Positions 18,066 to 60,857 of a stretch of 64,000 bases of DNA are shown in pieces; within the stretch, counting starts at the first letter, position 1, and each line of letters opens with the position of its first letter. The stretch covers positions 13,495 to 77,494 of the forward strand of contig JASEIO010000001.1 in assembly GCA_030017475.1 (NCBI GenBank). Direction: 5' to 3'. Below the pieces are notes generated by a model, which ran no database searches, was not told the DNA's origin, and saw nothing but the letters and a program-made list of their open reading frames with translations. The DNA comes from a bacterium. GTDB lineage: Bacteria > UBA9089 > JASEIO01. The translations under genes were made by a program, and so were the position numbers.

Positions 18066-18818
18066 ATGCCAAGGGATAAGAAGAAAAGGGAGGAGTGTAG
18101 AGGAGCTCCTGAATATATGCTGACCTATGGGGACATGGTGACCTTATTGTTATGTTTCTTTGTTCTTCTCCTTACTATGTCTACCATCCATGCAGAGAAG
18201 GTGAGAATGACCCTCTCTGCATTTCGTGGAGCTATTGGGGTAATGGAAAAGGGACCATCGGTTACTAAAGAAGATCTTATGACTATGGGGATGGATGTTG
18301 GCGGAATGATAAAAGGGATACCTACAATTATGACTGGGAAAGAGCATGAATTGGGAAGAAGAGAAAGGGAAGATATTTCGGATAAGATTCAAGCTGTTTT
18401 AAAGGAGGATGTGCGAAAAGGGGCGATTAAGATTCGGCATGAAGAAAGAGGTATAGTTATTCAGCTGACAGACAAGGTATTGTTTGATGAAGGTAGTGCA
18501 GAGATTCGAGAGGAGGCAAAGCCAGTATTGGATAAGGTAATCGAGTTACTTGAGCGTAGAACTAACAGAATCCAAATTGAAGGGCATACGGATTCGACAC
18601 CAATCAAAACCAATCGATTTCTATCAAATTGGGAATTGTCTACTGCCAGAGCAACCCAGGTTTTACGGTATTTTGAGGATTCGCACCGTATTAAATCCCA
18701 GAGGTTAAGTGCCTCGGGATATGGGGAATATAGACCTCTATTACCAAATACTACAGCCAAAAATAGGGCCCTAAATAGAAGGGTAGACATTGTGATATTG
18801 AGAGAAGAGATAAAATAA
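18066..18818 (+). CDS. motB: flagellar stator protein MotB (OmpA-like PG-binding)
   Basis: 250 aa. N-terminal TM helix with conserved Asp (YGDMVTLLLCFFVLL). C-terminal OmpA-like domain (IEGHTDSTP ... NRRVDIVIL). Confidence 0.85.
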   Translation: MPRDKKKREECRGAPEYMLTYGDMVTLLLCFFVLLLTMSTIHAEKVRMTLSAFRGAIGVMEKGPSVTKEDLMTMGMDVGGMIKGIPTIMTGKEHELGRREREDISDKIQAVLKEDVRKGAIKIRHEERGIVIQLTDKVLFDEGSAEIREEAKPVLDKVIELLERRTNRIQIEGHTDSTPIKTNRFLSNWELSTARATQVLRYFEDSHRIKSQRLSASGYGEYRPLLPNTTAKNRALNRRVDIVILREEIK

Positions 18819-18848
18819 GATATCCTATATTATACCAGGGGCTAGGAA

Positions 18849-19388
18849 ATGCCAAATGGGGAAGAGAAGGAGGAAAAGGAAAAGAAGCCACTTTTAAGAT
18901 TACCTATAATAAGGATCTTACTCGGGGTTATTGGCCTAATTATATTAGTATTTATTATGATTTTTATAGCAAGAATGGTTGGAAAAGCTGGACCTAAACC
19001 AATAGAAGTAGGGCGACCATGGGAAGAATTAGAAGAAAAGAAGGTACCTCCTCCGAAGGCTCTGAAGATTTGGGCATTAACTTCTGGAGAGGAGGCAATT
19101 ATAGCAAACTTAGGAGGGGATGTGGTTGAGACCCATTTAGTAAGGGTCACTCAAATAAATCTTGCTTACGAAGAAAAATATAAGGCTTTGGCTACAGAAC
19201 TTGCTACACCAGGAAGGACTGCTCAAATAAAGGATCTCTTTAATACAGTCCTAAGTACCAAAGCATCTGAGGATTTTATTACAGAAGAGGGGAATCGAGC
19301 AGTTAAGGATGAATTGATAGAAAGGATAAATGCAATATTGTGTGAAGGACAGATTAAAGATATCTATTGGCAACTGGTTGTCCAATAA
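18849..19388 (+). CDS. fliL: flagellar basal body-associated protein FliL
   Basis: 179 aa. Single N-terminal TM helix. FliL-like periplasmic domain (IANLGGD ... FITEEGNRAVKDELIERIN). Upstream of fliM. Confidence 0.7.
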   Translation: MPNGEEKEEKEKKPLLRLPIIRILLGVIGLIILVFIMIFIARMVGKAGPKPIEVGRPWEELEEKKVPPPKALKIWALTSGEEAIIANLGGDVVETHLVRVTQINLAYEEKYKALATELATPGRTAQIKDLFNTVLSTKASEDFITEEGNRAVKDELIERINAILCEGQIKDIYWQLVVQ

Positions 19389-19428
19389 ACCTTTTCTTTT
19401 TTGAAGGAAAAAGGACAGAGGGTAAAAA

Positions 19429-20331
19429 ATGGGAGGGAGTAATATAAAAGAGTATGATTTTACCCGTCCTGATAAACTCTCCAAAGAGCAGATAAGATCC
19501 CTTCAATTGATTTATGAGGGTTTTTCAAGATCCGTTTCAGCCTTTCTTTCCACTCAACTTCGAGGTATAGTGGAAGTCCATGTGATTTCTATTTCTCAAT
19601 CTACTTACGAAGAGTTTACTAATTCGTGCGCCAATCCTACTACCTTAGTGTTGATTGATATGACTCCCCTAAAAGGGGAGGCAGCAATGGAAATCCAACC
19701 ATCCATTGTTTTCACAATCGTTGATAGGTTACTTGGTGGAAAAGGGGAGGCAACCGATTTAAATAGGGAGTTAACTGATATAGAATTGAGTATGATAAAA
19801 TGGGTGGTGAATCATATCCTGGATTCACTAAAGGTGTCCTGGGAAGGGACAGTAGAATTAAAACCACGCTTGATAAGTATTGAATCTAATCCTCAGTTTA
19901 CTCAACTTGTTCCTTTAAACGATATCGTGATATTGATTATATTAGAGATCAAGATTGGAGAGATAGAAGGGAAATTGAGTTTTTGCTTACCATTTGTAAT
20001 TATAGAACCGCTCTCTTTGAAGTTATCTGGAGAAAAACGAGCAAGGAGTGAAAAAGAGGTTTTAGATGGCCCTTCTTCTTTAAAGATTAAACAAAGTTTG
20101 AATACTGTAAAGGTACCTATCATTGCAGAACTTGGTAGAGCAGATGTGGTTTTTTCTGATCTTCTTAATATGCAGGTAGGAGATGTAATAAAGCTTAAAA
20201 GAAAGGTCTCAGATGATTTAATATTAAAAGTAGGGAGAATACCAAAATTCAAATGTCGACCAGGGATTATGGGAACAAATATTGCTGTTCAAATTAATAA
20301 AGTAATAGAAGAGGAAGGAGGTGAGGTTTAG
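19429..20331 (+). CDS. fliM: flagellar motor switch protein FliM
   Basis: 300 aa. N-terminal CheY-P binding region. FliM middle domain and C-terminal FliN-like SpoA domain (LNMQVGDVIKLKRKVSDDLILKVGRIPKF). Confidence 0.9.
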   Translation: MGGSNIKEYDFTRPDKLSKEQIRSLQLIYEGFSRSVSAFLSTQLRGIVEVHVISISQSTYEEFTNSCANPTTLVLIDMTPLKGEAAMEIQPSIVFTIVDRLLGGKGEATDLNRELTDIELSMIKWVVNHILDSLKVSWEGTVELKPRLISIESNPQFTQLVPLNDIVILIILEIKIGEIEGKLSFCLPFVIIEPLSLKLSGEKRARSEKEVLDGPSSLKIKQSLNTVKVPIIAELGRADVVFSDLLNMQVGDVIKLKRKVSDDLILKVGRIPKFKCRPGIMGTNIAVQINKVIEEEGGEV

Positions 20332-21351
20332 ATGGAAGAGGATACCACCCTTTCTCAAGAAGAGATTGATGCATTATTAGTAGAAGGAGGAGAGGTTGAA
20401 AAGGGAGAGCTTCCGATGACAGATATGGAAATTCAATCCCTAACTTCTTTCCTTTCAAAAGTCAGATCTAAGATAGCTTCGTCCATCACTTCTCTTTTAA
20501 AGAGGAGATTTGATATATCCAATCTTACAATCTCCTGCATCTCAACCGGAGAGTTGAAAGAGAGATTAGAGGGTGAATTTGTAGTTGCCAAAATCGAGTA
20601 TACTAAAGGTTTAATCGGAGAGGGTATACTAATCATTTCTAAGGATAATGGGGCTATTATATCTGATATAGTAATGGGTGATGATGGGACTTCTCCTCCT
20701 GAGGAGTTAGATGACTTATACCTTAATGCCTTAGGAGAGGTGATTACTCAAATGGTAAATCAAATGAACATGGCCCTTGACAAAAAGATAGAAGCCCTTT
20801 CACCAGAAGTAAGTATAATAGATTTTACCTCTCCGGATATTGACCTATCTATTTTAAAAGAACCAAATATCTTGTTTTGTACTTATGATCTATCGGTAGA
20901 AGGTTTGATTGAAGATAAACTGTTTCAGTTGTTTCCAGTAGACCTTGCCAAACAGGTATTAGTCTTGCGAAAGGATAAGGCCGCAGCACCACCACATGCC
21001 AAAAGGGTACCAATGCAGGAGGCAGTTTCTGTTCACCCTGTTCAATTCGGTACCTTAAAACCCAGTGAAAAGACTTCACCACCTTCAAATATCGACTTAC
21101 TTATGGATGTACCTATGCAGGTTACAATAGAACTTGGTAGGACTGAGATGTTGATAAAAGATATACTGAAACTTGGAGAAGGTTCAGTTGTTAAACTGGA
21201 TAAGGCAGCAGGTGAGCCAGTTGATTTGTTGGTTAATGGTAAATTGGTGGCTAAAGGTGGAGTGGTAGTAGTTGATGAGAACTTTGGAGTTAGAATTACA
21301 GATATAATCTCTCCAGTTGAGAGACTTGGTTGTGTTAAAAGTAACGAGTAG
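20332..21351 (+). CDS. fliY: flagellar motor switch protein FliY (CheC-like domain fused to FliN domain)
   Basis: 339 aa. N-terminus TLSQEEIDALL aligns with B. subtilis FliY. C-terminal SpoA/FliN domain PMQVTIELGRTEMLIKDILKLGEGSVVKLDKAAGEPVDLLVNGKLVAKGGVVVVDENFGVRITDII. Confidence 0.85.
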   Translation: MEEDTTLSQEEIDALLVEGGEVEKGELPMTDMEIQSLTSFLSKVRSKIASSITSLLKRRFDISNLTISCISTGELKERLEGEFVVAKIEYTKGLIGEGILIISKDNGAIISDIVMGDDGTSPPEELDDLYLNALGEVITQMVNQMNMALDKKIEALSPEVSIIDFTSPDIDLSILKEPNILFCTYDLSVEGLIEDKLFQLFPVDLAKQVLVLRKDKAAAPPHAKRVPMQEAVSVHPVQFGTLKPSEKTSPPSNIDLLMDVPMQVTIELGRTEMLIKDILKLGEGSVVKLDKAAGEPVDLLVNGKLVAKGGVVVVDENFGVRITDIISPVERLGCVKSNE

Positions 21352-21409
21352 ATTGGTTGTCAGTTTTTAGTTTCTTATCTAATAACTGATAACTAAGAGG
21401 GGGTAATTA

Positions 21410-22009
21410 ATGAAGATTTTAGCTTCTATTGTTCTTATTTTCATAGGTAGTTTCGCATTATTGACCTTTTCTGTGTATGGAGAAGAGGTTTTGGTCCAAG
21501 AAGCAGACAGCGCGGATCGAGCACTAAATAACGATCTGATATCAATTGATAATAAGACACCCACCCTTCGTACTAATTATGAGTTTAATTCCATTTCCCT
21601 TATATTCAAAACCATATTTGCTTTAGGGTTAATCACTTCGGTAATCTACCTTATTTTTCGTTTCTTTATGAAAGGACGGGCTTTTTTCCCTTTTACTTCA
21701 TCTTCCTTTATTCAGGTTATGGGTGTAGCTCCATTAGCTCCTAATAAATATATTCAGTTAGTGGAGGTAGCTAATAAGATTTTGATTTTAGGAATAAGCG
21801 GAGAAAATATTAATCTGTTATCCGAGATCAAGGAGAAGGAAGTGATAGATTTGATTAAAACTCATGGATCACGTGAATTAGGGAAAGAAAAGACCTCCTT
21901 TACGCACCATTTGAAGACCTTTTTTAAAGGATTTTCTGGTACAGAAGATTATAATAAAAAGATAGATTTTCTAAAAAAACAGCAGCAGAGATTGAAGGAT
22001 TTAGAATAG
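21410..22009 (+). CDS. fliO: flagellar biosynthesis protein FliO (FliZ of Bacillus nomenclature)
   Basis: 199 aa. Signal/TM segment, second TM helix, and FliO-like region YIQLVEVANKILILGISGENINLLSEIKEKE. Position upstream of the fliP/Q/R region. Confidence 0.6.
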   Translation: MKILASIVLIFIGSFALLTFSVYGEEVLVQEADSADRALNNDLISIDNKTPTLRTNYEFNSISLIFKTIFALGLITSVIYLIFRFFMKGRAFFPFTSSSFIQVMGVAPLAPNKYIQLVEVANKILILGISGENINLLSEIKEKEVIDLIKTHGSRELGKEKTSFTHHLKTFFKGFSGTEDYNKKIDFLKKQQQRLKDLE

Positions 22010-22046
22010 AAATAATCTTTTGGGATCTTTTCTTGGGAAGTGATTA

Positions 22047-23879
22047 GTGGACTTATATAATTCCAATTTGGCCTTATTAAGAAAGGTAGAACCAGGTTTG
22101 TTCTATCGCCTACTTCGGGTTTCGAGGAATACCAGCTCGCATTTAAAACAAAAATTATCTCTTCCTCTACTCCTTAATTTTGATTTGCGGAATGCAGATG
22201 TGGTTGTAGTATTAGGATTTGGAATGGGAAGGCATATCCCTCAGATTGTAGAAAGGATTTCCAGGAGTTGTTTTCTTTTGATAATTGAGAGCGATTTAGG
22301 GATTTTTAAAGAGGCTTTACACCACATAAATCTCATTCCTTTATTTTCAAATTGCCGTGTTTCTCTATCCGTTGGAGAAGATCCCTTCAATGCCACCCGG
22401 GTTAGATTGGATAATTATTATGGAGTGCTGACTATAGCTAAAATAAAGGTTATTGAGTATTCGCCATCTATAGAGGTTTCACCTACCTATTATCAAAAGG
22501 TAAGGGATAATCTAAAGGATGCAGCAGAGATGGCAGTTAGAAATATCGCCACTATGAGTAAATTTTCATCCATTTGGAGAGGGCATGTTTTAAAGAATAT
22601 TACAGCCATTATCAAAAATCCAGGAGCGAATACATTGTGGGGTAAGTTTAAAGATATACCTTCGATTATTGTAGCAGCGGGTCCCTCCTTGGACAAAAAT
22701 GTGCTTGAGTTAAAAAAGGCAAAAAACCGTGCCTTGATAGTTTGCGTGGATACAGCCTTACGTACCCTTTATAATAATGGAATCCGACCAGATTTAGTGG
22801 TGTCCATTGATGCCCAAGATTTTAATCTAAAGGATTTTGAAGGGGTAGAGTTAACCGAGGAGGTGCTTTTGGCGGTTCCAGTGGTTTATCCGCCAATTAT
22901 TGAACGCTTTAATAATAGAGTATTTATAACCAGTTATGGACATCCATTAGTGGATTGGTTAGAGAGATCTATTGGAAAGAAGGGATATACAAAGGTTGGT
23001 GGTAGTGTAGCTACAACCTGTTTTGATTTCTTAATAAGGGCAGGTGCTAACCCCATTATTTTTGTGGGACAAGATTTGGCTTTCACTGAAGGGAAGACCC
23101 ATACTGGGTGCTCATTTGAGGTAGAAGATATCTTCTTAAATTCAATCGATAAATTCTGCACCTTAGAGATGATGTATAGAGAAATGATAAAGGAGAGACA
23201 AGACCTAATCGAAGTTGAGGATATCTATGGTGGAAAGGTAGAGACCTCAAAGCAAATGCTTGGTTGGTTAAAATGGTTGGAATCTCAAGTAAAAGAATCA
23301 GGAAGAGTTTGTATTGATGCTACTGAAGGAGGAGCAAGAATAAAAGGGACCCGCGTCATGAGATTGAAGGATGCTATTAAATACTACTGCAAAAAAGAGG
23401 TTAACATAAAGGGGATTTTATATAATGCCATAGATCTTTATCGGCAACCCAGAACAGAGGCATTAGTGGAGGAAATGAAAAGGTTAATTCAGGAATGTTA
23501 CTCTTTAGAAGAGATTGGGAAGAAAGGCAAAGAGACAGCAAGTAAGTTGATAGATATCCTATTTAGTGAAAAAAGGACAACGGATGTAACCAGTCAGTTA
23601 TTCTCTCAAATGGGTTCTTTTTATCAACAGATTTTTGGAAACCACTATCTTATGGAACTTTTTAGATGGTCGATTGAACCTTTAATTGCTGAGGTAGATA
23701 GGTTAAAGCAGGGTAAATCTCCTATGGTAGTGGCTAAGAGATGTGAGCACTTTTTCCAGGAGATTATGAAAATTATCCGAGAGATAATTTTACAGTTAGA
23801 AGAGGCAAAGGTTCAATTGGAAGATTTGGAATTACAAAAAGGCATGAGAAAACTTCATACATTTTGGCTGGAAGCCTGA
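22047..23879 (+). CDS. motility accessory factor (Maf) family protein, DUF115/MptE-like putative glycosyltransferase
   Basis: 610 aa. N-terminus MDLYNSNLALLRKVEPGLFYRL resembles Campylobacter Maf N-termini. DUF115 core VVVLGFGMGRHIPQIVE and IIVAAGPSLDKNVLELKKAKNRALIVCVDTALRTLYNNGIRPDLVVSIDAQ. Alpha-helical C-terminal half. Confidence 0.7.
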   Translation: MDLYNSNLALLRKVEPGLFYRLLRVSRNTSSHLKQKLSLPLLLNFDLRNADVVVVLGFGMGRHIPQIVERISRSCFLLIIESDLGIFKEALHHINLIPLFSNCRVSLSVGEDPFNATRVRLDNYYGVLTIAKIKVIEYSPSIEVSPTYYQKVRDNLKDAAEMAVRNIATMSKFSSIWRGHVLKNITAIIKNPGANTLWGKFKDIPSIIVAAGPSLDKNVLELKKAKNRALIVCVDTALRTLYNNGIRPDLVVSIDAQDFNLKDFEGVELTEEVLLAVPVVYPPIIERFNNRVFITSYGHPLVDWLERSIGKKGYTKVGGSVATTCFDFLIRAGANPIIFVGQDLAFTEGKTHTGCSFEVEDIFLNSIDKFCTLEMMYREMIKERQDLIEVEDIYGGKVETSKQMLGWLKWLESQVKESGRVCIDATEGGARIKGTRVMRLKDAIKYYCKKEVNIKGILYNAIDLYRQPRTEALVEEMKRLIQECYSLEEIGKKGKETASKLIDILFSEKRTTDVTSQLFSQMGSFYQQIFGNHYLMELFRWSIEPLIAEVDRLKQGKSPMVVAKRCEHFFQEIMKIIREIILQLEEAKVQLEDLELQKGMRKLHTFWLEA

Positions 23880-24673
23880 TTATAGTTACAACAACTAATA
23901 GAGACTGGGAGAGGAGATTGAAGAGATATATTATTATATTTGTACTTATAGCCTCTTTTCTTGTTTTTTCCTTTAAACCCGCCTTTTCACAACACATACC
24001 TATTCCCAAAATAGATATTGGAATTACAGAAGCAAAGGGTCCACGAGAGGTTACCTTAGCATTACAGATCTTATTCTTACTTACCATCTTGACATTAGCC
24101 CCCTCGATTGTTATTATGCTTACATCCTTTATAAGGATTATGGTAGTACTTTCCTTTGTCAGACGTGCCTTAGCTACTCAAGAGATGCCACCTCAGCAGG
24201 TTATAGTGGCCTTGGCCTTATTTCTCACCTTCTTTATTATGGCTCCAACAATCAGCAAAATAAATAAGGAGGCTGTACAGCCTTATTTGCAAGGGAAGTT
24301 TACTCTTGAACAGGCTCTTTCCAAAGCCATTGAACCCATTCGAGAATTTATGTTTCGCTATACAAGGGAGAAGGATATTGCATTATTTATGAAAATGGGT
24401 GATTTGGGAAGACCTGCAAATAGAGAAGATGTCCCTACTTATACCTTGATTCCTGCCTTTATGATCTCTGAACTATCTACTGGATTTCGTATGGGGATTT
24501 TATTGTTTATTCCATTTCTGGTTTTAGATATGGTGGTAGCATCAACCTTAATGTCTATGGGAATGATAATGCTTCCACCAGTTATGGTTTCTTTGCCCTT
24601 CAAGATATTATTATTTGTTTTAGTAGATGGCTGGCATTTAATTACACGTTCATTGGTCTTATCTTATCATTGA
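23864..24673 (+). CDS. fliP: flagellar biosynthetic protein FliP
   Basis: 269 aa. Signal-like N-terminus. Conserved FliP TM core LALQILFLLTILTLAPSIVIMLTSFIRIMVVLSFVRRALATQEMPPQQVIVALALFLTFFIMAP. The ORF overlaps the maf 3' end by 16 nt. Confidence 0.9.
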   Translation: MAGSLIIVTTTNRDWERRLKRYIIIFVLIASFLVFSFKPAFSQHIPIPKIDIGITEAKGPREVTLALQILFLLTILTLAPSIVIMLTSFIRIMVVLSFVRRALATQEMPPQQVIVALALFLTFFIMAPTISKINKEAVQPYLQGKFTLEQALSKAIEPIREFMFRYTREKDIALFMKMGDLGRPANREDVPTYTLIPAFMISELSTGFRMGILLFIPFLVLDMVVASTLMSMGMIMLPPVMVSLPFKILLFVLVDGWHLITRSLVLSYH

Positions 24674-24716
24674 TGATGCAGAATGCGAAAATAAGAGGGG
24701 TGAAATAAAGGAAGGG

Positions 24717-24983
24717 ATGATTACCCAAGGATTTATAATTGCTTTAGCCAGAGAAACCTTGTTAACTGTAATTATGGTATCTGCTCCAATGCTTGGTTTT
24801 GGATTAGTGGTTGGTTTGGCTGTATCGATTTTTCAAACTGTCACCTCTATCCAGGACCAAACCTTAAGCTTTGTACCAAAAATCTTAGCTGTTCTTCTGT
24901 CTATGATTCTTTTTGGCGGATGGATGATTAGAACGCTTATGGATTTTTTTATCAGGCTGTCTAATCTCCTACCCACAATATAA
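24717..24983 (+). CDS. fliQ: flagellar biosynthetic protein FliQ
   Basis: 88 aa, two TM helices. FliQ family; adjacent to fliP and fliR. Confidence 0.9.
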   Translation: MITQGFIIALARETLLTVIMVSAPMLGFGLVVGLAVSIFQTVTSIQDQTLSFVPKILAVLLSMILFGGWMIRTLMDFFIRLSNLLPTI

Positions 24984-25058
24984 TTATAAGCTATAAGCTG
25001 TAAGGATTAAGCAGTAAGCTTTTCCTTATTTTAGTCCTAATCCTTTTTTGATTCAGTT

Positions 25059-25847
25059 ATGGATTATGAGTTATTGATCAATCAATTTCAGTTGTTTTTT
25101 CTTATATTTTCGCGCATTGCAGGGATGTTTGCTTTTGCACCATTTTTTGAAAGTCCCACAATTCCAATGATGGCTAAGGCAGGGTTATCTCTTTTTGTAA
25201 CTGTAGTGTTATTTCCTATGGCAAGTAGCCATTTTGAGATTAGCATACCTCATCAATTTTTCCCATACAGCTTGTTAGTTATCCAGGAAGTAATTATTGG
25301 TCTTATTATCGGGGTTTTATGCACCATTATGTTAACTGCATTTTCATTATCAGGGGAGCTTTACTCATTTCAAATGGGATTGGGAATCATAAATGTGTTT
25401 GATCCATTGTCCGAAAGAGAGGTGCCAATAATTGGTCAATTTGTGGGTCTCATAGCCCTTCTAATATTCATAACCTGGGGTGGACATCATATGTTATTAG
25501 AGGCAATCTACAAAAGTTTTAAGGTCCTACCCATTCTTCCATTAAAGGCTGTAAATTCCTTAGCCTCTTCAGTTGTAGATATATTTTCCAAGATGTTTCT
25601 TGTTGCCTTTATGATTGGCTCACCTATTATTGGGGTTCTATTTATAATTACTATGGTTATGGGTATATTAGCAAAAGCAACACCACAGATGAATGTGATG
25701 ATGGTCGGTTGGCCAATACAGATAGTAGTGGGGATAATTACCTTGATTCTCCTTTTACCTTTATTATACGATGCTACGATTTCGATCTTTAACTCCCTTT
25801 TTAACAATATAGACACAATCATACGGAATATAGGAGGCATTAAATAA
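25059..25847 (+). CDS. fliR: flagellar biosynthetic protein FliR
   Basis: 262 aa polytopic membrane protein with FliR family architecture, downstream of fliQ. Confidence 0.85.
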   Translation: MDYELLINQFQLFFLIFSRIAGMFAFAPFFESPTIPMMAKAGLSLFVTVVLFPMASSHFEISIPHQFFPYSLLVIQEVIIGLIIGVLCTIMLTAFSLSGELYSFQMGLGIINVFDPLSEREVPIIGQFVGLIALLIFITWGGHHMLLEAIYKSFKVLPILPLKAVNSLASSVVDIFSKMFLVAFMIGSPIIGVLFIITMVMGILAKATPQMNVMMVGWPIQIVVGIITLILLLPLLYDATISIFNSLFNNIDTIIRNIGGIK

Positions 25848-25971
25848 ACGTCTACATCCTGGAAATTCTACAACTTATATAATGGATAGAACGCTAGCAG
25901 AAACCTAAAATATTCCAGGATTCCACCATTCCAATTGTTGGTGGAGCGAACTAGGTTCGATAGGTGTAAGA

Positions 25972-27111
25972 ATGGAGGAGGTTTTTAACTCTCAACTGTC
26001 AACTGTGGACTGTGAATTAAAGATAGACCTACAGCTTTTTGCTGCTGAGGATGAGGGTAGAACAGAGGATCCGACTAGTAGAAAGATTTCGAAGGCAAGG
26101 CAAAAGGGTCAGGTAGCAAAATCAGCTGAAATTTCACAAATCTCAACGACCCTTGTCTGCCTTTTCCTTCTTTCCTTACTTGGCTCTTATTATCTCACTG
26201 AATTATATAGATTTATTTATACTACCATATCAAATATCCATGCCATAGATTTCACACCTGGGAATATCTCGATGATTATGGTAAATACAATCCTACTTTT
26301 TCTGAAGATAACCTTGCCAATAATGGTGACTGCGGTGGTTGTAGCTATAGTCACCAATATGATTCAGGTAGGGTTTATGTTTACCATGGAGCCACTAAAA
26401 CCTGATCTTTCAAAGCTTAAGCCAAGTATGTCAAAGATTTTCAATAGATTATTGATATCCAAAAAGACCCTATTTGAGTTTGCCAAATCTATTGCCAAAC
26501 TTGCAATTATTGTCTATATTGCCTACAGATTTATTAAGGCAAGATACTTGGATCTACTTTTATTGATAGAGATGCATCCGTTATCTTCTTTCTTCCTTGT
26601 AGCAAAGATTGCCTATCAATTAGCTATGGTCATCCTTCTTCTTTTAATCATTATAGCAATTTGTGATTATTTTTATCAAAAACGTGAATGGAAAGAAAGT
26701 TTAAAGATGACCAAACAAGAGGTAAAAGACGAATATAAGATGTTGGAAGGGGATCCATTGATTAAGAGTAGGATAAGAGAAAGACAAAGGGAGGCAGCAA
26801 GGCGTCGGATGATGCAGGAGATTCCAAAGGCAGATGTAGTGATTACCAATCCTACTCATATTGCTGTAGCCATTAGATACGTAGCTGAATATATGGCTGC
26901 ACCAGTTGTAGTAGCAAAAGGAGAGGGTTTTGTAGCTCGGAGGATTGTGGAGATTGCAGAAAAGGCAGGTATACCAGTTGTGGAAAATAAACCTTTGGCT
27001 GAGGCACTCTATCGCTCTACAGAGGTGGGAGAAGAGATTCCTGAAGAGCTTTATCGGGCTGTGGCTGAGGTACTATCGTATGTTTACAGAATGAGAGAAA
27101 GAGCCGTGTAA
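25972..27111 (+). CDS. flhB: flagellar biosynthetic protein FlhB
   Basis: 379 aa. LQLFAAEDEGRTEDPTSRKISKARQKGQVAKS N-terminus. Four TM helices. Conserved autocleavage region NPTHIA (NPTH motif). Confidence 0.9.
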   Translation: MEEVFNSQLSTVDCELKIDLQLFAAEDEGRTEDPTSRKISKARQKGQVAKSAEISQISTTLVCLFLLSLLGSYYLTELYRFIYTTISNIHAIDFTPGNISMIMVNTILLFLKITLPIMVTAVVVAIVTNMIQVGFMFTMEPLKPDLSKLKPSMSKIFNRLLISKKTLFEFAKSIAKLAIIVYIAYRFIKARYLDLLLLIEMHPLSSFFLVAKIAYQLAMVILLLLIIIAICDYFYQKREWKESLKMTKQEVKDEYKMLEGDPLIKSRIRERQREAARRRMMQEIPKADVVITNPTHIAVAIRYVAEYMAAPVVVAKGEGFVARRIVEIAEKAGIPVVENKPLAEALYRSTEVGEEIPEELYRAVAEVLSYVYRMRERAV

Positions 27112-27171
27112 AAGATGTTCAAGGAACAAGGATCGAGGTTTTTTGCCTTGCTCCTTTAGTTTAAGGTGGAT

Positions 27172-29232
27172 ATGGCTGTTGGGGCAGATGTATTAGGTAG
27201 ACCGCATTGGATGCAGAAGACTGATGTTTTGGTATCAATTGGTGTATTGTGTATAGTGATAATGATGGTCATACCCCTTCCTCCGTTTATTCTTGATCTT
27301 TTTATTGCTGCAAATTTGACTATAGGTATTGCTGTCATTTTGACCACTATGTATATACTGAAGGCAGTTGAGTTTACTGTTTATCCAAGCCTTTTGTTAA
27401 TAGTTACAGTGTATAGATTGGCCTTAAATGTCTCTTCAACCAGGATGATATTGCTCGGTAGGGGGGAGGAGATTGGTATAATTAAGGCATTTGGTACATT
27501 TGTTATTGGAGGAAATTATGTAGTAGGGATTATCATATTTTTGATCCTTGTGATGATACAATTTATGGTAGTTGTAAGGGGAACAACCCGTGTTTCTGAA
27601 GTGGCTGCAAGATTCACTTTGGATGCCATGCCTGGGAAACAGATGGCGATTGATGCCGATTTAAATGCTGGTTTAATCACTGAACAGGAGGCAATTGAAA
27701 GAAGAATGGAGATAAGAAAGGAGGCAGATTTTTATGGGGCTATGGATGGTGCATGTAAGTTTGTGCAGGGAGATGTTATGGCAGGACTTGTGATCACGAT
27801 AATAAATATTATTGGTGGATTAATAATTGCTATCTGGATTCTAAAATTAGAACCAATGGCCGCGGTTAAGAAATATACTATCTTAACTGTAGGGGATGGA
27901 TTGGTGGCCCAAATTCCATCATTACTTATCTCAGTAGCTACAGGATTACTCGTAACAAGGGCTGCTTCAGAAGCTAATTTAGGGACAGACTTAACCACTC
28001 AATTAACTGCTAAACCAAAGGTTCTATGGATTGTATCAGGTGCCTTGGCATTCTTGGCGATTACACCTTTACCTACTTTACCATTATTGACCTTATCAGG
28101 GGGAAGTGGATTTCTGGCCTATGTGCTGTCAAAGAGTCAGAAACAGATGGAGGTAGAGAAGGTAGAGGCAAAAAAAAGGGAAGAAGTGGAACGGGCAAAA
28201 AGGCCAGAGTCGGTTATGTCCCTTCTGCAGGTTGATCCAATGGAGTTGGAGATTGGATATTCCCTTATTCCCTTAGTTGATCCTGAACAGGGTGGAGATT
28301 TATTGGATAGGGTAACAATGATCCGGCGCCAAATGGCTATGGATTTAGGATTGGTTGTACCACCAATAAGGATAAGGGATAACATGCAGCTTCGGCCAGA
28401 TACCTATGTGATTAAGATAAAAGGGGTGGAGGTGGCCAAAGGGGGGATAAAGGTAGATCATTATTTAGCTATGAATCCAGGTACAGCCACAGAAGAGATA
28501 GAAGGAGAGAAAACTATTGAGCCTGCTTTCAAACTTCCAGCAATCTGGATTACTGAAGCGGAGCGTGAAAGGGCTGAGATGGCAGGTTACACTGTGGTTG
28601 ATGCACCATCAATTGTAGCCACTCATTTGACTGAGGTTATAAGGAGAGATGCCCCAGAGTTACTTGGACGTCAAGAGGTACAAACATTGCTTGACAATGT
28701 AAAACAGAAATATCCCACCTTGGTTGATGAGTTAGTTCCAAATGTCTTAACTGTAGGAGAAGTCCAAAAGGTTTTACATAGTTTACTAAAGGAAGGGGTT
28801 TCTATTAGAAATTTAGTTACAATCTTGGAGGTTTTAGCAGATTTTGCCCCAAAGACAAAGGAGATACCTATATTAACTGAGCAGGTAAGGATTGCATTAG
28901 CCAGGCAGATTTGTAATCAATACAAGACAGAAGAAGGGATCTTACCAGTTATTACCTTAGATCCCACTTTAGAAGAGACAATCACAAAATCGATAAAAGA
29001 GAATAGGATTGTTCTTGAGCCCGCTACATTGCAGAAGATCTTATCTAATCTATCCGGAGAGATGAATAAGGCAGCTTTGCAAGGGTATCAGGCCTTGGTT
29101 TTATGTTCATCTAAAATAAGAAGGTATCTAAAGGATTTAACCATTCGCAATCTTCCTACCTTGGCAGTTCTTTCCTATGATGAGATTATACCTGATATAG
29201 AGGTAAGATCTGTAGGGATGGTGAGGATATAA
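27172..29232 (+). CDS. flhA: flagellar biosynthesis protein FlhA
   Basis: About 686 aa. Eight-TM N-terminal domain with FHIPEX-like motifs and a large cytoplasmic C-terminal domain. ATG 27172 follows AAGGTGG. Confidence 0.95.
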   Translation: MAVGADVLGRPHWMQKTDVLVSIGVLCIVIMMVIPLPPFILDLFIAANLTIGIAVILTTMYILKAVEFTVYPSLLLIVTVYRLALNVSSTRMILLGRGEEIGIIKAFGTFVIGGNYVVGIIIFLILVMIQFMVVVRGTTRVSEVAARFTLDAMPGKQMAIDADLNAGLITEQEAIERRMEIRKEADFYGAMDGACKFVQGDVMAGLVITIINIIGGLIIAIWILKLEPMAAVKKYTILTVGDGLVAQIPSLLISVATGLLVTRAASEANLGTDLTTQLTAKPKVLWIVSGALAFLAITPLPTLPLLTLSGGSGFLAYVLSKSQKQMEVEKVEAKKREEVERAKRPESVMSLLQVDPMELEIGYSLIPLVDPEQGGDLLDRVTMIRRQMAMDLGLVVPPIRIRDNMQLRPDTYVIKIKGVEVAKGGIKVDHYLAMNPGTATEEIEGEKTIEPAFKLPAIWITEAERERAEMAGYTVVDAPSIVATHLTEVIRRDAPELLGRQEVQTLLDNVKQKYPTLVDELVPNVLTVGEVQKVLHSLLKEGVSIRNLVTILEVLADFAPKTKEIPILTEQVRIALARQICNQYKTEEGILPVITLDPTLEETITKSIKENRIVLEPATLQKILSNLSGEMNKAALQGYQALVLCSSKIRRYLKDLTIRNLPTLAVLSYDEIIPDIEVRSVGMVRI

Positions 29233-29233
29233 A

Positions 29234-30376
29234 ATGATGAAATATAAGAGATATGAAGCTCCAACATTACAACAGGCAATCTTAAAAATGACAATTGATT
29301 TGGGGAAGGATGCGATTTTGGTTAGCCATAGAACTACAAGAAAAGGAGGACTTTTTGGATTATTTGGAAAGAAGGTAGTGGAGGTAACAGGGGCTCTGCC
29401 TTCTCGGATTAAGAATCCTTCCACCTCTTCCCCTGAGGTTAAACCTTCCATTACTTCTCCTTCTAAGGTTAAAGGCAATAATCCCCAAGGTGATGAGATA
29501 AATGAGATTCAAAGGGAACTTCAAGAGATAAAGCAGAGGATGGAAATAATGTTTGAGGAGATGAAAGTAGGGGTTTCTTCCAAATATCCTGGGAAGTCCG
29601 GAGAGCTGTATATGCGGTTGATCCAGTCAGAGGTGGAGGAGGGGTTAGCAGAAGATTTGATAAAAAAGATAATAGCGGAGTCGTCTTCGAAGGAGCTTGA
29701 AGACAAAAGTTTGTTGCAGCACAACTTAGAGAGATGCATTATGGATTTGATTGAGGTCTCTGGTCCAATAAAACTTGACTCCCACCCAAAGGTAGTTATT
29801 TTGGTTGGACCAACAGGTGTGGGAAAGACTACCACCTTGGCTAAATTAGCAGCAGACTTCGCTTTTGAGAAGGATTGTAAGGTAGCTTTAATTACTATAG
29901 ATACCTATAGGATCGCTGCAGTAGAACAATTAAAAACTTATGCTGAGATTTTAGGTGTTCCTTTGCATATTGTATTTTCTCCTCAAGAATTTGGGGAGGC
30001 CATCCGACAATTGGAAAATTTTGATTTAATTTTGGTAGATACTGCTGGTAGAAGCCAAAGAAATCACCAGCAGATGCAAGAATTGAAAATATTTATTGAG
30101 AATTGCGGGTTTGAGCTTGAGAGTATTTTATTATTAAGTGCTACTACCAAATATAAAGAGATGCTTGATATTACGGAGAGCTTTAAAAAGGTATCCTTTA
30201 ATAAAATCCTCTTTACCAAGCTTGATGAAACAGTTACCTTTGGTCCTATCTTGAATATTTTGACTAAGGTTCCCAAGCCCTTGTGTTACGTAACCTTAGG
30301 GCAAAATGTTCCTGAAGATATAGAGGTTGCTGATCCGAAAAAGATTGCAAGATTAATCCTTGAGGAACAAAAATAA
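29234..30376 (+). CDS. flhF: flagellar biosynthesis SRP-type GTPase FlhF
   Basis: 380 aa. SRP-GTPase motifs G1 [28 protein letters not shown]. Located just downstream of flhA. Confidence 0.85.
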   Translation: MMKYKRYEAPTLQQAILKMTIDLGKDAILVSHRTTRKGGLFGLFGKKVVEVTGALPSRIKNPSTSSPEVKPSITSPSKVKGNNPQGDEINEIQRELQEIKQRMEIMFEEMKVGVSSKYPGKSGELYMRLIQSEVEEGLAEDLIKKIIAESSSKELEDKSLLQHNLERCIMDLIEVSGPIKLDSHPKVVILVGPTGVGKTTTLAKLAADFAFEKDCKVALITIDTYRIAAVEQLKTYAEILGVPLHIVFSPQEFGEAIRQLENFDLILVDTAGRSQRNHQQMQELKIFIENCGFELESILLLSATTKYKEMLDITESFKKVSFNKILFTKLDETVTFGPILNILTKVPKPLCYVTLGQNVPEDIEVADPKKIARLILEEQK

Positions 30377-30451
30377 AGATCTTAACTGTAAGGATTAAGC
30401 TTAAAGGAAACTTAATTTTTTAATCTTATAGATTAGTAAATGGGAGGGAAA

Positions 30452-31318
30452 ATGAGTGATCAAGCGGAAAGGCTAAGGGAATTGGCAGAAAAGAATAATT
30501 CGAATTCACCTTGTAAGGTTATCGCTATAACTTCGGGTAAAGGTGGTGTTGGAAAGACGAATTTAGCTGCGAACCTGGCCATATCGTTTTCTAAGATACG
30601 GAAAAAGGTTTTAGTTATGGATGCCGATTTGGGCCTGGCTAATGTGAATGTTATTCTTGGACTTATCCCCCCTCCACGGTATAATCTTTATCATGTAATC
30701 ACAGGGCAGAAAACGCTTTCTGAAATAGTTTCGGAAGGACCAGGAGAAATTAAACTGGTTGCTGGGGCATCTGGTGTACGTGAGGTGGCAAATCTGTCTG
30801 AAGATACGAGAAAGGAGTTCATTTCTCATTTAAATGATCTGCAGGATTCAAATGACCTTATTCTGATTGATACAGGAGCAGGTTTATCTCAAAATGTCCT
30901 ATCCTTTGTTTTGGCTTCGGATCAGGTGATTTTGATCACTACTCCTGAACCAACCTCGATTGCCAATGCTTACGGGGTTATTAAAGTAATTTCGCAAGAA
31001 GATCAAGATACAAATATTAAATTGATTGTTAATCGAGTGAAAAACATCTTAGAGGGAAAGCGAGTAGCTGATAGAATAATAAATATAGCTGCCCAATTCC
31101 TTAATATGAGAGTGGAAACCCTTGGATATATCTTAGAAGATCCATTAGTTGGTAAGGCAGTAAGGATGCAGAAGCCATTTATATTGAATTTCCCAAATTC
31201 AAAGGCAACTTTATGTATAAATCATATAAGAGATAGATTGATAAATATTAATGCGGAGCCCCAGAAAGAAAAAAGGTTCAGCCTATTTTTTGAGAATCTT
31301 TTTAGGAGAAGATTATAG
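30452..31318 (+). CDS. flhG: MinD/ParA-type ATPase FlhG (YlxH/FleN)
   Basis: Deviant Walker A ITSGKGGVGKTNLAANLA. MinD-like fold. ATG 30452 follows GGGAGGG; the ORF track's 30440 start overlaps that RBS. Confidence 0.85.
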   Translation: MSDQAERLRELAEKNNSNSPCKVIAITSGKGGVGKTNLAANLAISFSKIRKKVLVMDADLGLANVNVILGLIPPPRYNLYHVITGQKTLSEIVSEGPGEIKLVAGASGVREVANLSEDTRKEFISHLNDLQDSNDLILIDTGAGLSQNVLSFVLASDQVILITTPEPTSIANAYGVIKVISQEDQDTNIKLIVNRVKNILEGKRVADRIINIAAQFLNMRVETLGYILEDPLVGKAVRMQKPFILNFPNSKATLCINHIRDRLININAEPQKEKRFSLFFENLFRRRL

Positions 31319-31413
31319 ATTATGAAGAGAGCAGTAATTCTACTTTTAGGTATTTGAGAAGCTTTTAACATTTTTTTCTTGCGTTATGATGGAAGGGATG
31401 GTATAATAGAAAG

Positions 31414-31719
31414 ATGATTAGTAGATTCATGCATTGGGTCGCTATCTTTGCCTCTTTATTAAATGGAGTAACTACCTTTCTTAAATTTTTTGGTGCCATA
31501 AGTGGGTCAAATCTATTTGTAATTGTTGTTACTCGTATGATGGTTACATTTATAATCTTTTGTGGCATTGGCTTTATAATTAAACGAATAGTTTCTTACA
31601 AGATTCCTCAGTTATTGGAAACTGGTGGAGGGCTTGGAGGGCATGTTGATTATTCATTGCCAGCTACTTCACCTGTTACAGAAGGTAAAAAAAAGGAACA
31701 GGCTGAGGAAGAAAAGTAA
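31414..31719 (+). CDS. small hypothetical membrane protein
   Basis: 101 aa. Two predicted TM helices, then a Gly-rich and Lys/Glu-rich tail. No recognisable family. Occupies the slot where che genes sit in the Bacillus fla/che operon. Confidence 0.3.
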   Translation: MISRFMHWVAIFASLLNGVTTFLKFFGAISGSNLFVIVVTRMMVTFIIFCGIGFIIKRIVSYKIPQLLETGGGLGGHVDYSLPATSPVTEGKKKEQAEEEK

Positions 31720-31794
31720 ATAATTTTTCTTTTTTCCATGTTTTCCCGTTTTCCATACTTACACAGATTCAGAGAGCTGATTTGAAGGTGAGTG

Positions 31795-32574
31795 ATGGCG
31801 AAGTCAGAAGAGGAAATTTGGAAGCAGTATAAAAAGACAGGGGATCCAAAATTAAGAGAAGAGTTAATCATAAGATATGCCCCCATGGTTAAATACATTG
31901 CTGGAAGAATTGCAGTTTCTACTCCTCCATCAATTGAATATGATGATTTAGTAAGTTATGGCGTCTTAGGGTTGATTGATGCTATTGAAAGGTATGATCC
32001 TAAACATGGATCAAAGTTTAAGACTTATGCTACGAGTAGGATTAAAGGATCAATCTTTGATGAATTAAGGTTACTTGATTGGGTACCAAGACAGATTAGA
32101 AGAAGGTCAAAGCAGCTTGAAGGTGTATATGCAGAGTTAGAGAGTAAATACGGAAGGGCAGTTAGAGATGAGGAAGTAGCTGAGGAGTTGGGGATAGGTG
32201 TGGAGGAGTTGCAAAATCTTATCACGAGCGTAAGTGGCACATCTCTTATTTCTTTAGAAGATATGAAACATTTAGGTGATGATGATGAAGTGGCTATGTT
32301 TTCCACAATTGAAAACCCTGAGACTCAAAATCCAGAGGCAATTTTAGAAAAGGAAGAGGTGAAGAATCTTCTTGTTGAGGCAATCAATAGACTTCCACAA
32401 AAGGAACGTGAAGTTATTACTCTTTACTATTATGAGGAATTGACTCTAAAGGAGATTGGTGAAGTTCTTGGTGTTACTGAGTCAAGGATTTCTCAACTTC
32501 ATACTAAGGCAATTTTAAGACTTCGTGGATTTCTTTCTAAGATGAGAAGAGTATCCAAAGGTTCAGTTGCCTAA
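31795..32574 (+). CDS. fliA: flagellar sigma factor sigma-28 (FliA/SigD)
   Basis: About 259 aa. Region 2 (YDDLVSYGVLGLIDAIERYDPKHGSKFKTYATSRIKGSIFDELR) and region 4 HTH (LTLKEIGEVLGVTESRISQLHTKAILRLR). Confidence 0.9.
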   Translation: MAKSEEEIWKQYKKTGDPKLREELIIRYAPMVKYIAGRIAVSTPPSIEYDDLVSYGVLGLIDAIERYDPKHGSKFKTYATSRIKGSIFDELRLLDWVPRQIRRRSKQLEGVYAELESKYGRAVRDEEVAEELGIGVEELQNLITSVSGTSLISLEDMKHLGDDDEVAMFSTIENPETQNPEAILEKEEVKNLLVEAINRLPQKEREVITLYYYEELTLKEIGEVLGVTESRISQLHTKAILRLRGFLSKMRRVSKGSVA

Positions 32575-32649
32575 GGGGAAATGAGAGGAAAAGGTGTAAC
32601 AAAGGAAAAAGAGGGAAAATAGAGATTAGTTACAATAGATGGAGAGAAG

Positions 32650-51430: not shown

Positions 51431-51535
51431 ACAAAAATTGTTACAAGAATTATTGGATGACAAATTTTGTAATTGCGATTGACAATTATTGTCAAACCAG
51501 GACAAGAGAGGTTTGGTAGTGAGTACAAGATTTGT
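51431..51535 (+). promoter_or_regulatory. array of four ACAA-N3-TTGT inverted-repeat operator-like sites upstream of the STAND-TPR gene
   Basis: ACAAaaaTTGT (51431-41), ACAAattTTGT (51460-70), TTGACAATtATTGTCAA (51479-95, perfect 8-bp arms) and ACAAgatTTGT (51525-35, overlapping the gene start). Confidence 0.4.
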
Positions 51536-51546
51536 TAGGTTTTATA

Positions 51547-53733
51547 ATGATAGGGATTTTTCTCGTTATCGTAGTAATTGCACCTATCCTTTACTTTATC
51601 TTTAGCTATAGAAAGAAGGATGAAAGAGGGAAGGTTTCTACGGATTTACCACTTCCATTTAGAATCTCATCCCTTGGTTCTGAGCCTATTTTGGATCCGC
51701 CCAATTTTATAGGAAGGGAGGATGAGCTTTTTAAATTAAAAGAAAACCTTAGGTACAAAAGTGTAATAATCATTAAGGGTAAAGAAGGGGTTGGAAAGAC
51801 AAGTTTAGGCGCAAAATTTTGCAAGGAGCTCTCTTCAGATTATTCGACCTTTTGGTATACAGCCTGTGAAGATACAGATATTGAAGGTATATTTCTAAAA
51901 CTTAATCAATTTCTTGAGCAAAAAGGGGATAGATTTTTTTCCCAAATCTTTATTCTCCCCGAAATAGAAATAAAGGGTAAAATTGATTTGTTAATAAAGA
52001 GGTTAGAAAAGAAAAGATATATTTTATTTATTGATAATTACCATTTGATAATGGATAATAGGGTATTTCATATGATAGATCGTTTTTCTAAGGAACTAAA
52101 TGTTTCCAAGGTAGTTATAATTACTTCAGAAAAGCTTACCTTAGCCCAGGACAAAATTTTTGAGTTGGAACTTCAGGGGTTTAATCTGAATGATTCAATC
52201 CTATTTTTAAAAACTTGCGGGTTAGAAAAAGGCGATTTAGAAAAGATATCTAACAAGTTTCAAGGTAATCCTTTAGCCTTAAAGTTAATAGCCTCGGAAA
52301 AAGACGCAAGGTCAGTTTTTGATGAGGTAAGCGGAAGAAATATTAGAGATATAATAGATATAAGATATAATAGGTTAAATGAAGACGAGAGGAATTTAAT
52401 CTCAAGGTTATCTGTATTTAATGAAGAGGTGCCATTTGAGGCTTGCAAATATCTGTATAAAAGGACAAATTTGCTTAAGATTATAAAAGATCTGGAATCT
52501 TTGGCTTTAATCACTGAACATAATGGAAATTATTCATTACATTCAGAAATAAGAGACCTTTGTTATGAGAAACTTTTTCAAAAAGAAAGATATCATAAAG
52601 CAGCAGCGAAATATTACGGAGATGCGAATGCGGCTTTAAAGGAAAAAAGAATGGAGGCAGTTCTTGAAGAATCTCACCATTATTTTAAAGCAGAGGATTA
52701 TTCTTCTTCATTAGATCTTTTAATCTCTAATTTAAACCAAATGGTTTTAGGTGGGTATTCGTCTCTTCTTTATGCCCGGTTACTAAAATTTAAGAGGAGT
52801 AACCTTACAGACAAAGAGTGGTTAAAAGTTTCTCAAGCCAAAGGCGAGATTAATAATTTCCGGGGGTTTTTTGATGAGGCTATTTCAAATTTTACTGAGA
52901 TGTTACGGATAGCAGAAAATGGTAAATCAAGAAACGACCTTTCTCTTTCATATCATGGGCTGGGAAGTGCTTACCGTTTAAAGGGCGATTTGAATCAAGC
53001 CATTTCTTATTATGAAAGGAGTCTGCGTGTTTTTGAAGAAGAGGAGCCTATTAAACGAGAAAGTCCTGTCTATAGACAGAGTTTTGGTTCAGTTTATAAA
53101 GGTAGAGGAAGATGGGATGAGGGAATAAGGTACTACATTGGTTATCGTAAACGCGATTTTGATCTGCACGAGGAAAGTAATATAATTGCTATAATTTATG
53201 CAGACTTGGGGCTGATTTATCTTAAAAAGGGAGAGTTTGAGCAGGCGATTTCATGTTTTGAGAAAGGATTGGATTTTTCTTTAAAAGAGGAGGATTTAAT
53301 AGGTAAGGTAATAAGTATTACAGATTTAGGTGTTGCCTATCATCTAATGGAGGAATATGATAGGGCTATATCTTATTATGAGGAGAGTTTATCTTTATGG
53401 AAAGAAATAGGGAATGTAAATAGAACTGGCTCTATTTATAATAACCTGGGAACTATTTATCAGAATAAAAGAGAGATGGAGCAGGCAATCAAAAATTTTG
53501 AAAATAGTTTGGAGATATGGAGAAGAATTGGAAATTTATTCGAAGAAGCAGAAGTTTTAAGATCCCTTGGCGCAATTTACGAAAAGATAGGGGATTATCT
53601 CAAGGCAATCGATTATTACAAGAAAAGTATTGAGATATTTGAAAATATTGGAAGAGAAGATGAACTTCCATCTCTTTATGAAAAGATAAATATAGCCACT
53701 GAGATATTGGAGAAGGAAAGGAAGAAGGGATAA
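51547..53733 (+). CDS. membrane-anchored STAND/NB-ARC-type NTPase with C-terminal TPR repeats
   Basis: N-terminal TM helix IGIFLVIVVIAPILYFIF. P-loop GKEGVGKTSL with hhhhD Walker B ILFIDNYH. At least five TPR units (LGSAYRLKGDLNQAISYYERSL, LGLIYLKKGEFEQAISCFEKGL, LGVAYHLMEEYDRAISYYEESL, LGTIYQNKREMEQAIKNFENSL, LGAIYEKIGDYLKAIDYYKKSI). The ORF track starts at TTG 51532. Confidence 0.7.
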   Translation: MIGIFLVIVVIAPILYFIFSYRKKDERGKVSTDLPLPFRISSLGSEPILDPPNFIGREDELFKLKENLRYKSVIIIKGKEGVGKTSLGAKFCKELSSDYSTFWYTACEDTDIEGIFLKLNQFLEQKGDRFFSQIFILPEIEIKGKIDLLIKRLEKKRYILFIDNYHLIMDNRVFHMIDRFSKELNVSKVVIITSEKLTLAQDKIFELELQGFNLNDSILFLKTCGLEKGDLEKISNKFQGNPLALKLIASEKDARSVFDEVSGRNIRDIIDIRYNRLNEDERNLISRLSVFNEEVPFEACKYLYKRTNLLKIIKDLESLALITEHNGNYSLHSEIRDLCYEKLFQKERYHKAAAKYYGDANAALKEKRMEAVLEESHHYFKAEDYSSSLDLLISNLNQMVLGGYSSLLYARLLKFKRSNLTDKEWLKVSQAKGEINNFRGFFDEAISNFTEMLRIAENGKSRNDLSLSYHGLGSAYRLKGDLNQAISYYERSLRVFEEEEPIKRESPVYRQSFGSVYKGRGRWDEGIRYYIGYRKRDFDLHEESNIIAIIYADLGLIYLKKGEFEQAISCFEKGLDFSLKEEDLIGKVISITDLGVAYHLMEEYDRAISYYEESLSLWKEIGNVNRTGSIYNNLGTIYQNKREMEQAIKNFENSLEIWRRIGNLFEEAEVLRSLGAIYEKIGDYLKAIDYYKKSIEIFENIGREDELPSLYEKINIATEILEKERKKG

Positions 53734-53775
53734 TTTTTCTTGACGCAATCTGTTTATAAAAGGAGGCTAAGAAAG

Positions 53776-55536: not shown

Positions 55537-55550
55537 GAAAGCTCTGGGCA

Positions 55551-60787: not shown

Positions 60788-60857
60788 TTTTCTGAGGAAA
60801 AAAGATTTTCTGATAAAGGTCTATGATTAGAAAACCGGTATGGAAGGTAGGGAGAAG

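Follow-up and report, generated by a model that had tools for sequence, protein, structure and literature searches.

A maf gene between fliO and fliP: a divergent Maf-family putative flagellin glycosyltransferase in the core flagellar export operon

Glycosylation of flagellin by Maf (motility-associated factor) proteins has been studied almost solely in Proteobacteria, in Campylobacterota and in a small number of Firmicutes, where maf is located in islands by flagellin. As components of such variable glycosylation islands, Maf genes are often mobile. Here we describe a maf gene from a contig of an uncultured bacterium (JASEIO010000001.1), of which a stretch of 64 kb, referred to as the window, was analyzed. 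The gene encodes a putative flagellin glycosyltransferase of 610 residues and lies between fliO and fliP in the core flagellar export operon (Table 1). A literature search yielded no published description of maf next to fliO or between fliO and fliP. The protein belongs, as a divergent representative, to a known family, while its gene order has not been described; mechanistically it is ordinary and does not represent a new mechanism.

The Maf proteins of Clostridium botulinum (CbMaf) and Geobacillus kaustophilus (GkMaf) have been shown biochemically to be flagellin Ser/Thr O-transferases for N-acetylneuraminic acid (Neu5Ac), 3-deoxy-D-manno-oct-2-ulosonic acid (Kdo) and legionaminic acid (Leg). 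Both share the Maf_flag10 domain (PF01973) with the window protein, and the flagellar operon of the window is Firmicute-style, similar to those of their hosts. Their genes, however, are found in flagellin glycosylation islands, with flagellin and sugar-synthesis genes as neighbors. So far, the structure of a single Maf has been solved, that of MmMaf from Magnetospirillum magneticum AMB-1 (PDB-entry 5MU5), the gene of which presumably belongs to a flagellin locus, in contrast to the window gene in its export operon. Shewanella oneidensis employs two further members of the same enzyme family: Maf-1 with a C-terminal tetratricopeptide repeat (TPR) region in a bipartite system, and Maf-2 together with GlfM in a tripartite one. 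The window Maf presumably has the same need of an acceptor-recognition element. Campylobacter possesses multiple Maf paralogues in a hypervariable glycosylation locus, whereas maf is present as a single copy in the operon of the window.

The maf product and its predicted fold

The GTG start of maf is sound, because the N-terminus (V/MDLYNSNLALL) aligns with the starts of 15 homologues (MDYY or MDYF). A Pfam search assigned residues 180–348 to PF01973 (MptE-like/DUF115, Maf_flag10) with an E-value of 6.1e-43 and a score of 147 bits (cutoff 34.6), covering positions 2–170 of the 171 in the profile. An earlier, sequence-only reading of the window had identified the product as a Maf/DUF115 protein of this length, and the profile match bears it out. 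Residues 48–118 matched PF20157 (Maf_flag10_N; E = 1.3e-5, 25.2 bits, cutoff 23.5), with the profile partly covered. This N-terminal domain is recorded in many homologues of the clade, too.

Structure prediction by AlphaFold2 with 16 clade sequences as input resulted in a confident model (pLDDT 84, pTM 0.79). Compared with solved structures, the model comprises the three domains known from 5MU5: a Rossmann-like N-terminal domain, a central MptE-like and sialyltransferase-like domain that resembles the glycosyltransferase A (GT-A) type and a C-terminal helical bundle. 5MU5 (632 resolved residues, a length similar to the 610 of the window Maf) is the best structural match, with approximately 390–700 aligned positions, although the sequence identity to the window Maf is 13–15%. 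The pattern of matches to solved structures is the one published for Maf. No membrane segment is predicted in the protein.

Residues essential for activity are E324 and D415 in MmMaf and D272, S334 and D357 in CbMaf. In the profile alignment, E324 of MmMaf falls on D255 of the window protein, so that a glutamate in the former corresponds to an aspartate in the latter; in the place of a CGTA motif of MmMaf the window clade has VDTA. D255, S320 (in a GGS motif) and D343 (in GQD) are invariant across a clade that is 38–47% identical to the window Maf. The spacing from D255 to the other two residues (+65 and +88) matches that in CbMaf (+62 and +85). Judged from spacing and invariance, not from an alignment, S320 and D343 would be the counterparts of the essential CbMaf residues. 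The HMMER alignment to 5MU5 covers the nucleotide-binding stretch only (~90 residues). On the grounds of its profile matches, among them a PseD-like one over residues 141–599, and of its predicted model, the maf product is a genuine Maf-family protein in terms of family, fold and a conserved, putatively catalytic aspartate.

PF01973 also comprises the archaeal 6-hydroxymethylpterin diphosphokinase MptE (PDB-entry 8SD5), and one could suppose that the window protein is inactive as a glycosyltransferase, either as an MptE-like pyrophosphokinase or as a dead scaffold or chaperone with a Maf fold. No donor-sugar pathway is visible in the window, which would fit such a role. The same is true for the match to the NCBIfam PseD model (NF050051), which spans residues 141–599 with an E-value of 2.9e-28: because its score of 98.9 bits is far below the cutoff of 670, the window Maf is not an equivalog of PseD from the PseD/PseE/Maf group of Campylobacter jejuni. 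MptE, however, is a single-domain protein of ~220–240 residues that acts in pterin biosynthesis, whereas the window protein has the additional N- and C-terminal Maf domains and is encoded in a flagellar operon; it is not of the MptE type. We consider an inactive protein distinctly improbable.

With respect to acceptor recognition, Pfam gave no match for a TPR domain in the window Maf, and no GlfM-like gene is found beside maf. A homologue of the 117-residue open reading frame (ORF) that occupies the GlfM position in the Thermotalea island (L042, see below) is not present in the window either; as GlfM is poorly conserved, a distant or unlinked copy may exist. Whereas glfM, the partner gene of Maf-2, encodes a four-helix bundle of ~90 residues, the 3' neighbor of maf in the window clade is fliP or a methyltransferase gene. 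Since both a TPR domain and an adjacent glfM are missing, acceptor recognition must use either the intrinsic helical C-terminal domain or an unlinked factor. As a single-copy Maf outside the islands, the protein thus lends itself to studies of acceptor recognition.

fliO-maf in related genomes

Maf homologues with 34–50% identity to the window protein are found in uncultured bacteria only. In thirteen loci fliO is located directly 5' of maf (L001, L002, L005, L006, L010, L011, L014, L017, L018, L019, L090, L093 and L169), so that the adjacency, with the window included, extends to at least 14 loci in three operon layouts. The window has the order fliY-fliO-maf-fliPQR-flhBA. In L002 and L169, fliO-maf-fliPQR-flhBA heads a unit behind unrelated genes or non-coding DNA. 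The third layout, fliN-fliO-maf-(methyltransferase)-plsY-gpsA with fliPQR elsewhere, is found in L001, L005, L006, L010 and L011. An additional locus from the metagenome-assembled genome (MAG) UBA9089 (L025) shows maf-fliPQR-flhBA on a contig that ends upstream of maf. As an unbiased check, L169 was picked by similarity of FlhA alone (71% identity; the closest relative on a long contig). Its order, fliO-maf-fliPQR-flhBA-flhF-flhG-orf-sigma-fapA-...-coaD, is that of the window, and the two Maf proteins are 43% identical.

Such a gene could in principle be a recent horizontal insertion from a glycosylation island without lasting significance, in line with the general mobility of Maf genes, for which the Thermotalea island is an example. 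The GC content of maf, however, is comparable to that of the flanking genes, and relatives with no more than 60–71% FlhA identity carry the gene at the same place. These nearest relatives are MAGs, followed by Hydrogenedentota, Limnochordia and Negativicutes with 56–59% FlhA identity. Across the same loci, identity to the window is 34–48% for Maf, 39–45% for FliN, 40–47% for FliO and 47–49% for FliR, and the divergence of Maf also parallels that of FliM. A neighbor-joining tree of 91 Maf sequences placed the fliO-linked ones in a single clade. Composition, co-divergence and synteny led us to reject a recent insertion, which is extremely improbable. Because Maf has diverged together with FliN, FliO and FliR, and because of the synteny, the clade in the tree and the ordinary GC content, maf has, by these sequence comparisons, belonged to the operon for a long time and been passed on vertically.

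Linkage to fliO is not universal in the clade. At a threshold of at least 330 bits, 13 fliO-linked loci (window included) and L025 stand against approximately 18 unlinked ones. Unlinked lineages nested in or beside the clade comprise Desantisbacteria (L007, L012, L013), L022, L023, L089 (Maf 47% identical), and a group with tandem maf genes adjoining fliS (L003, L015, L024). In the genome of L023 (MAG Yes70-25) the gene behind fliN-fliO is yajC (L087), and maf is located on another contig; a second MAG (L088) shows the same fliN-fliO-yajC layout. Among more than 100 more distant Maf loci examined, none had fliO, fliN or fliP nearby. The position of maf between fliO and fliP is a conserved setting within candidate phyla and a new result. 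In L089, a fragment of 102 residues similar to the C-terminus of FlgE/rod proteins was observed just 3' of maf on the opposite strand (2435–2743, −).

The persistence of the fliO-maf pair raises the question of a functional module, in which FliO would recruit Maf to the membrane or the nascent gate and glycosylation would thereby be linked in space to secretion; a coupling of this kind had also been suggested by the sequence-only reading. The pair is intact where the operon breaks 5' of fliO (L002, L169) as well as where it breaks 3' of maf (L001, L005, L006, L010, L011), and the latter layout keeps FliO with Maf rather than with FliP, its known client. On the other hand, a FliO-Maf fusion was found in none of six FliO homologues, and FliO shows the same degree of conservation in its cytoplasmic domain and tail in L087 and L088, lineages in which maf has left this site. 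The linkage is lost in several nested subclades (Desantisbacteria, L022/L023, L089), and the independent rearrangements are so few that one surviving junction is weak statistics. Moreover, Maf lacks a predicted membrane segment. A recruitment by FliO appears very unlikely, and the suggested coupling finds no support in these data.

FliO proteins of the maf-linked lineages (199–227 residues) have an N-terminal signal or transmembrane segment followed by a periplasmic stretch (encoded at 21410–21700 in the window). In the shorter FliO proteins (147–150 residues) of L087 (3326–3778) and L088 (6881–7324) this N-terminal segment is missing, and yajC follows. A docking site for Maf in FliO, which we considered, finds no support, as the extra length is N-terminal signal and periplasmic sequence and the cytoplasmic part is equally conserved without a linked maf.

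To compare the gene neighborhoods, we screened the flanks of 84 further Maf loci for which 9 kb or more were available. Flagellin was present in 37 of them and NeuB or a CMP-sugar (cytidine monophosphate sugar) synthetase in 26, whereas neither these nor PseB, PseC or PseG were found at any of the 13 fliO-linked loci. Among the unlinked members of the same Maf clade, one of 20 has flagellin nearby. The fliO-linked Maf subfamily is characteristically apart from glycosylation islands, and the placement is as unusual as the sequence-only reading had held it to be. A canonical island is that of Thermotalea (L042), with the order flgK...fliW-flagellin-maf-orf-maf-maf-pseB-...-pseC-CMP-synthetase-neuB-pseG. 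Using such an island as the query, a homology screen of the 64-kb window was negative for NeuB, CMP-sugar synthetase, PseB, PseC, PseG and flagellin, in agreement with the earlier statement that sugar-biosynthesis genes are absent; fliS was not found in the window either.

Two of the relatives carry additional genes in the same operon. In L005 (3606–5865) and L006 (4039–6212) a GT9-like glycosyltransferase gene and an S-adenosylmethionine (SAM) methyltransferase gene are inserted between fliM and fliN, and a paralogous SAM methyltransferase gene follows directly 3' of maf (10014–10877 and 9786–10649, respectively). The window has none of these. Because homologues of the GT9-like protein and the methyltransferase recur beside Maf genes in many distant loci, a role of the whole set in flagellar glycosylation is supported.

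Accordingly placed, this deep-branching Maf subfamily of uncultured lineages has long been fixed in the core export operon, apart from sugar-pathway and flagellin genes. For the annotation of candidate-phylum genomes this means that a gene of the DUF115 family is to be expected after fliO and before fliP.

Proposed function

Based on the family assignment and the gene order we propose, as the probable function of the maf product, that of a cytoplasmic flagellin O-glycosyltransferase with a CMP-ulosonic acid donor, produced at an early stage along with the export gate. We infer the donor sugar, flagellin as the acceptor, the co-transcription and the timing rationale. The protein would act as a soluble three-domain enzyme that binds its acceptor via the C-terminal helical bundle. 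By homology, a CMP-activated ulosonic acid (pseudaminic acid, legionaminic acid, sialic acid or Kdo) would be the donor for transfer to Ser/Thr residues of flagellin. The transfer is expected to take place in the cytoplasm, ahead of FliS binding and export. This would correspond to Maf1 of Aeromonas, which acts in the cytoplasm before export and chaperone binding (PMC4065374).

The sequence-only reading had described an overlap of 16 nt between maf and fliP and co-transcription of both. The overlap exists only for the longest ORF of fliP, which starts with TTG at 23864. According to an N-terminal alignment, FliP orthologues start later, their N-termini being shorter. The Shine-Dalgarno sequence GGGAGAGGAG stands before an in-frame TTG at 23918, with which a typical FliP signal peptide begins, MKRYIIIFVLIASF... 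(MKRYIIIF...). Because of the shorter orthologues, the Shine-Dalgarno sequence and the signal peptide at this position, the junction likely consists of the maf stop codon, a gap of 38 nt and the TTG start at 23918, and is not an overlap. The distance between fliO and maf is 37 nt. No terminator-like site was found on the + strand from fliO to fliP, and a search for a separate promoter or terminator of maf gave weak consensus matches only, one of them across the start codon. As the gaps are short and lack a terminator-like site, the assumed co-transcription of fliO, maf and fliP is plausible and the simplest reading.

At the distal end of the gene string a FliA/SigD-type sigma factor is encoded, which we presume, by analogy to the Bacillus fla/che paradigm, to be the driver of the late (flagellin) genes. 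Since maf is located in an early operon with a distal sigma gene, this Bacillus-type analogy suggests that it is expressed before flagellin. In the proposed scheme maf would be transcribed with the export gate before the sigma-28-type factor switches flagellin on, and the transferase would already be there when its substrate appears.

Several points weigh against this proposal. Flagellin, fliS and sugar-pathway genes are missing from the 64 kb and from all fliO-linked loci, so that acceptor and donor cannot be named from the context. The identity to characterized Maf proteins is low, the PseD score is far under the NCBIfam cutoff, and of the catalytic residues a single one (D255) is set by an actual alignment, S320 and D343 being assigned by spacing and invariance. 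Furthermore, neither a TPR domain of the Maf-1 type nor a neighboring GlfM-like gene of the Maf-2 type explains the recognition of the acceptor. The sequence-only reading had regarded a genome devoid of any nonulosonic-acid or other flagellin-glycan pathway, together with flagellin unmodified by mass spectrometry, as a refutation. With respect to pseudaminic or legionaminic acid (Pse/Leg) genes this is too strong: since characterized Maf proteins use CMP-Kdo and CMP-Neu5Ac, the absence of these genes would not by itself refute the activity (bioRxiv 10.1101/2020.06.03.131540).

The location of maf among early genes and distant from flagellin would also be explained if Maf modified an early export substrate instead of flagellin, for example the giant hook protein FlgE of 1,494 residues, as the sequence-only reading had suggested. 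A giant FlgE (1,494–1,518 residues) and a fliO-linked maf do occur together in the window, L005 and L006, and the additional genes for a glycosyltransferase and for methyltransferases in the operon of relatives would be in line with modification of such a substrate. These are, however, three related genomes and not independent cases. All characterized Maf proteins target flagellin, the C-terminal domain is similar to that of 5MU5, and early expression of a flagellin-modifying enzyme likewise suffices to explain the placement. The hook as the substrate is thus quite unlikely and not supported by the evidence. In its combined form, with fliO-maf as a selected two-gene module of a group of candidate phyla in which FliO brings Maf to the assembling gate, or lets it work there, and/or Maf acts on early axial substrates, for instance the giant hook, the idea is still unlikely. 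Taken jointly, we give the selected-module and early-substrate readings a small though appreciable chance. If they held true, protein glycosylation would form an early and integral part of flagellar type III assembly, not a late decoration of flagellin only. The locus provides a weak lead on whether glycosylation depends on its time or place with respect to the export gate.

The flgE gene of the window (12576–17060, +; likely start ATG 12594) is located 5 kb 5' of maf. The central region of its product is long, has a high content of Gly, Val and Ile and contains short repeats, for example GKIxGxV; this region coincides with a bump in GC content and GC skew at 14–16 kb. FlgE comprises 1,518 residues in L005 and 1,509 residues in L006.

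The flagellar gene string and its surroundings

The matches of the flanking genes to PF04347 and PF00813 confirm that maf lies between fliO and fliP, as had been stated before. FliO was also found by TIGR03500 (E = 2e-14) with 53.4 bits, slightly under the cutoff of 55.25 bits.

Table 1. Features of maf, its product and the flagellar gene string in the window.
Feature	Position	Strand	Remarks
fliY/fliN	20332..21351	+	339 aa; directly 5' of fliO; PF01052; NCBIfam FliY NF005995, 243 bits (cutoff 218)
fliO	21410..22009	+	199 aa; conserved upstream partner of maf; PF04347, 6.3e-13
maf	22047..23879	+	610 aa; GTG start; Maf-family putative flagellin glycosyltransferase
Maf N-terminal degenerate Rossmann-like domain	22188..22466	+	~aa 48-140; PF20157; strand/helix alternation at aa 52-137 in the model
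Maf central MptE-like/Maf_flag10 catalytic domain	22584..23090	+	aa 180-348; invariant D255, S320, D343
Maf C-terminal helical bundle	23457..23873	+	aa 471-609; presumed acceptor-binding
fliP	23918..24673	+	likely start TTG 23918; PF00813, 3.1e-80; longest ORF from 23864
fliQ, fliR, flhB, flhA	24717..29232	+	remaining export-gate genes, 3' of maf; PF01313, PF01311, PF01312, PF00771
FliA/SigD-type sigma factor gene	31792..32574	+	distal end of gene string; Sigma70 r2/r3/r4 domains

Farther 5' the string contains xerC, hslVU, flgB, flgC, fliE, fliF, fliG, fliH, fliI, fliJ, a gene for a soluble lytic transglycosylase (SLT) and an MgtE_N-like gene, and continues with fliK, flgD, the giant flgE, flbD, motAB, fliL, fliM and fliY. 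The 3' part extends through flhF, flhG, a 101-residue ORF and the sigma factor gene, which has the same position in L169, to fapA. The gene order of the fla operon (17000–32600) is Bacillus-like. There is no room for cheY between fliY/fliN and fliO, and none was found, in accordance with the absence noted in the sequence-only reading. No che genes were detected in this operon; cheA/W/B/C/D are missing between flhG and the sigma factor gene.

The SLT lytic transglycosylase is encoded within the flagellar operon between fliJ and the MgtE_N-like gene (9903–10484, +) and may play a FlgJ-like part in peptidoglycan remodeling. The 101-residue ORF between flhG and the sigma factor gene (31414–31719, +) gave no match in Pfam or NCBIfam; its counterpart in L169 is an ORF of 96 residues at the same place (9827–10117).

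The other 30 kb of the window consist of housekeeping genes and a Wood-Ljungdahl cluster. Among the housekeeping genes, a STAND/NB-ARC NTPase of 733 residues with C-terminal TPR repeats is encoded (51532–53733, +). The Wood-Ljungdahl-type genes (53740–61682, +) code for formate-tetrahydrofolate ligase, the corrinoid activase RACo, FolD, a protein with an S1 domain, CdhD and a pterin-binding protein similar to AcsE. The cluster suggests an anaerobic, acetogen-like metabolism.

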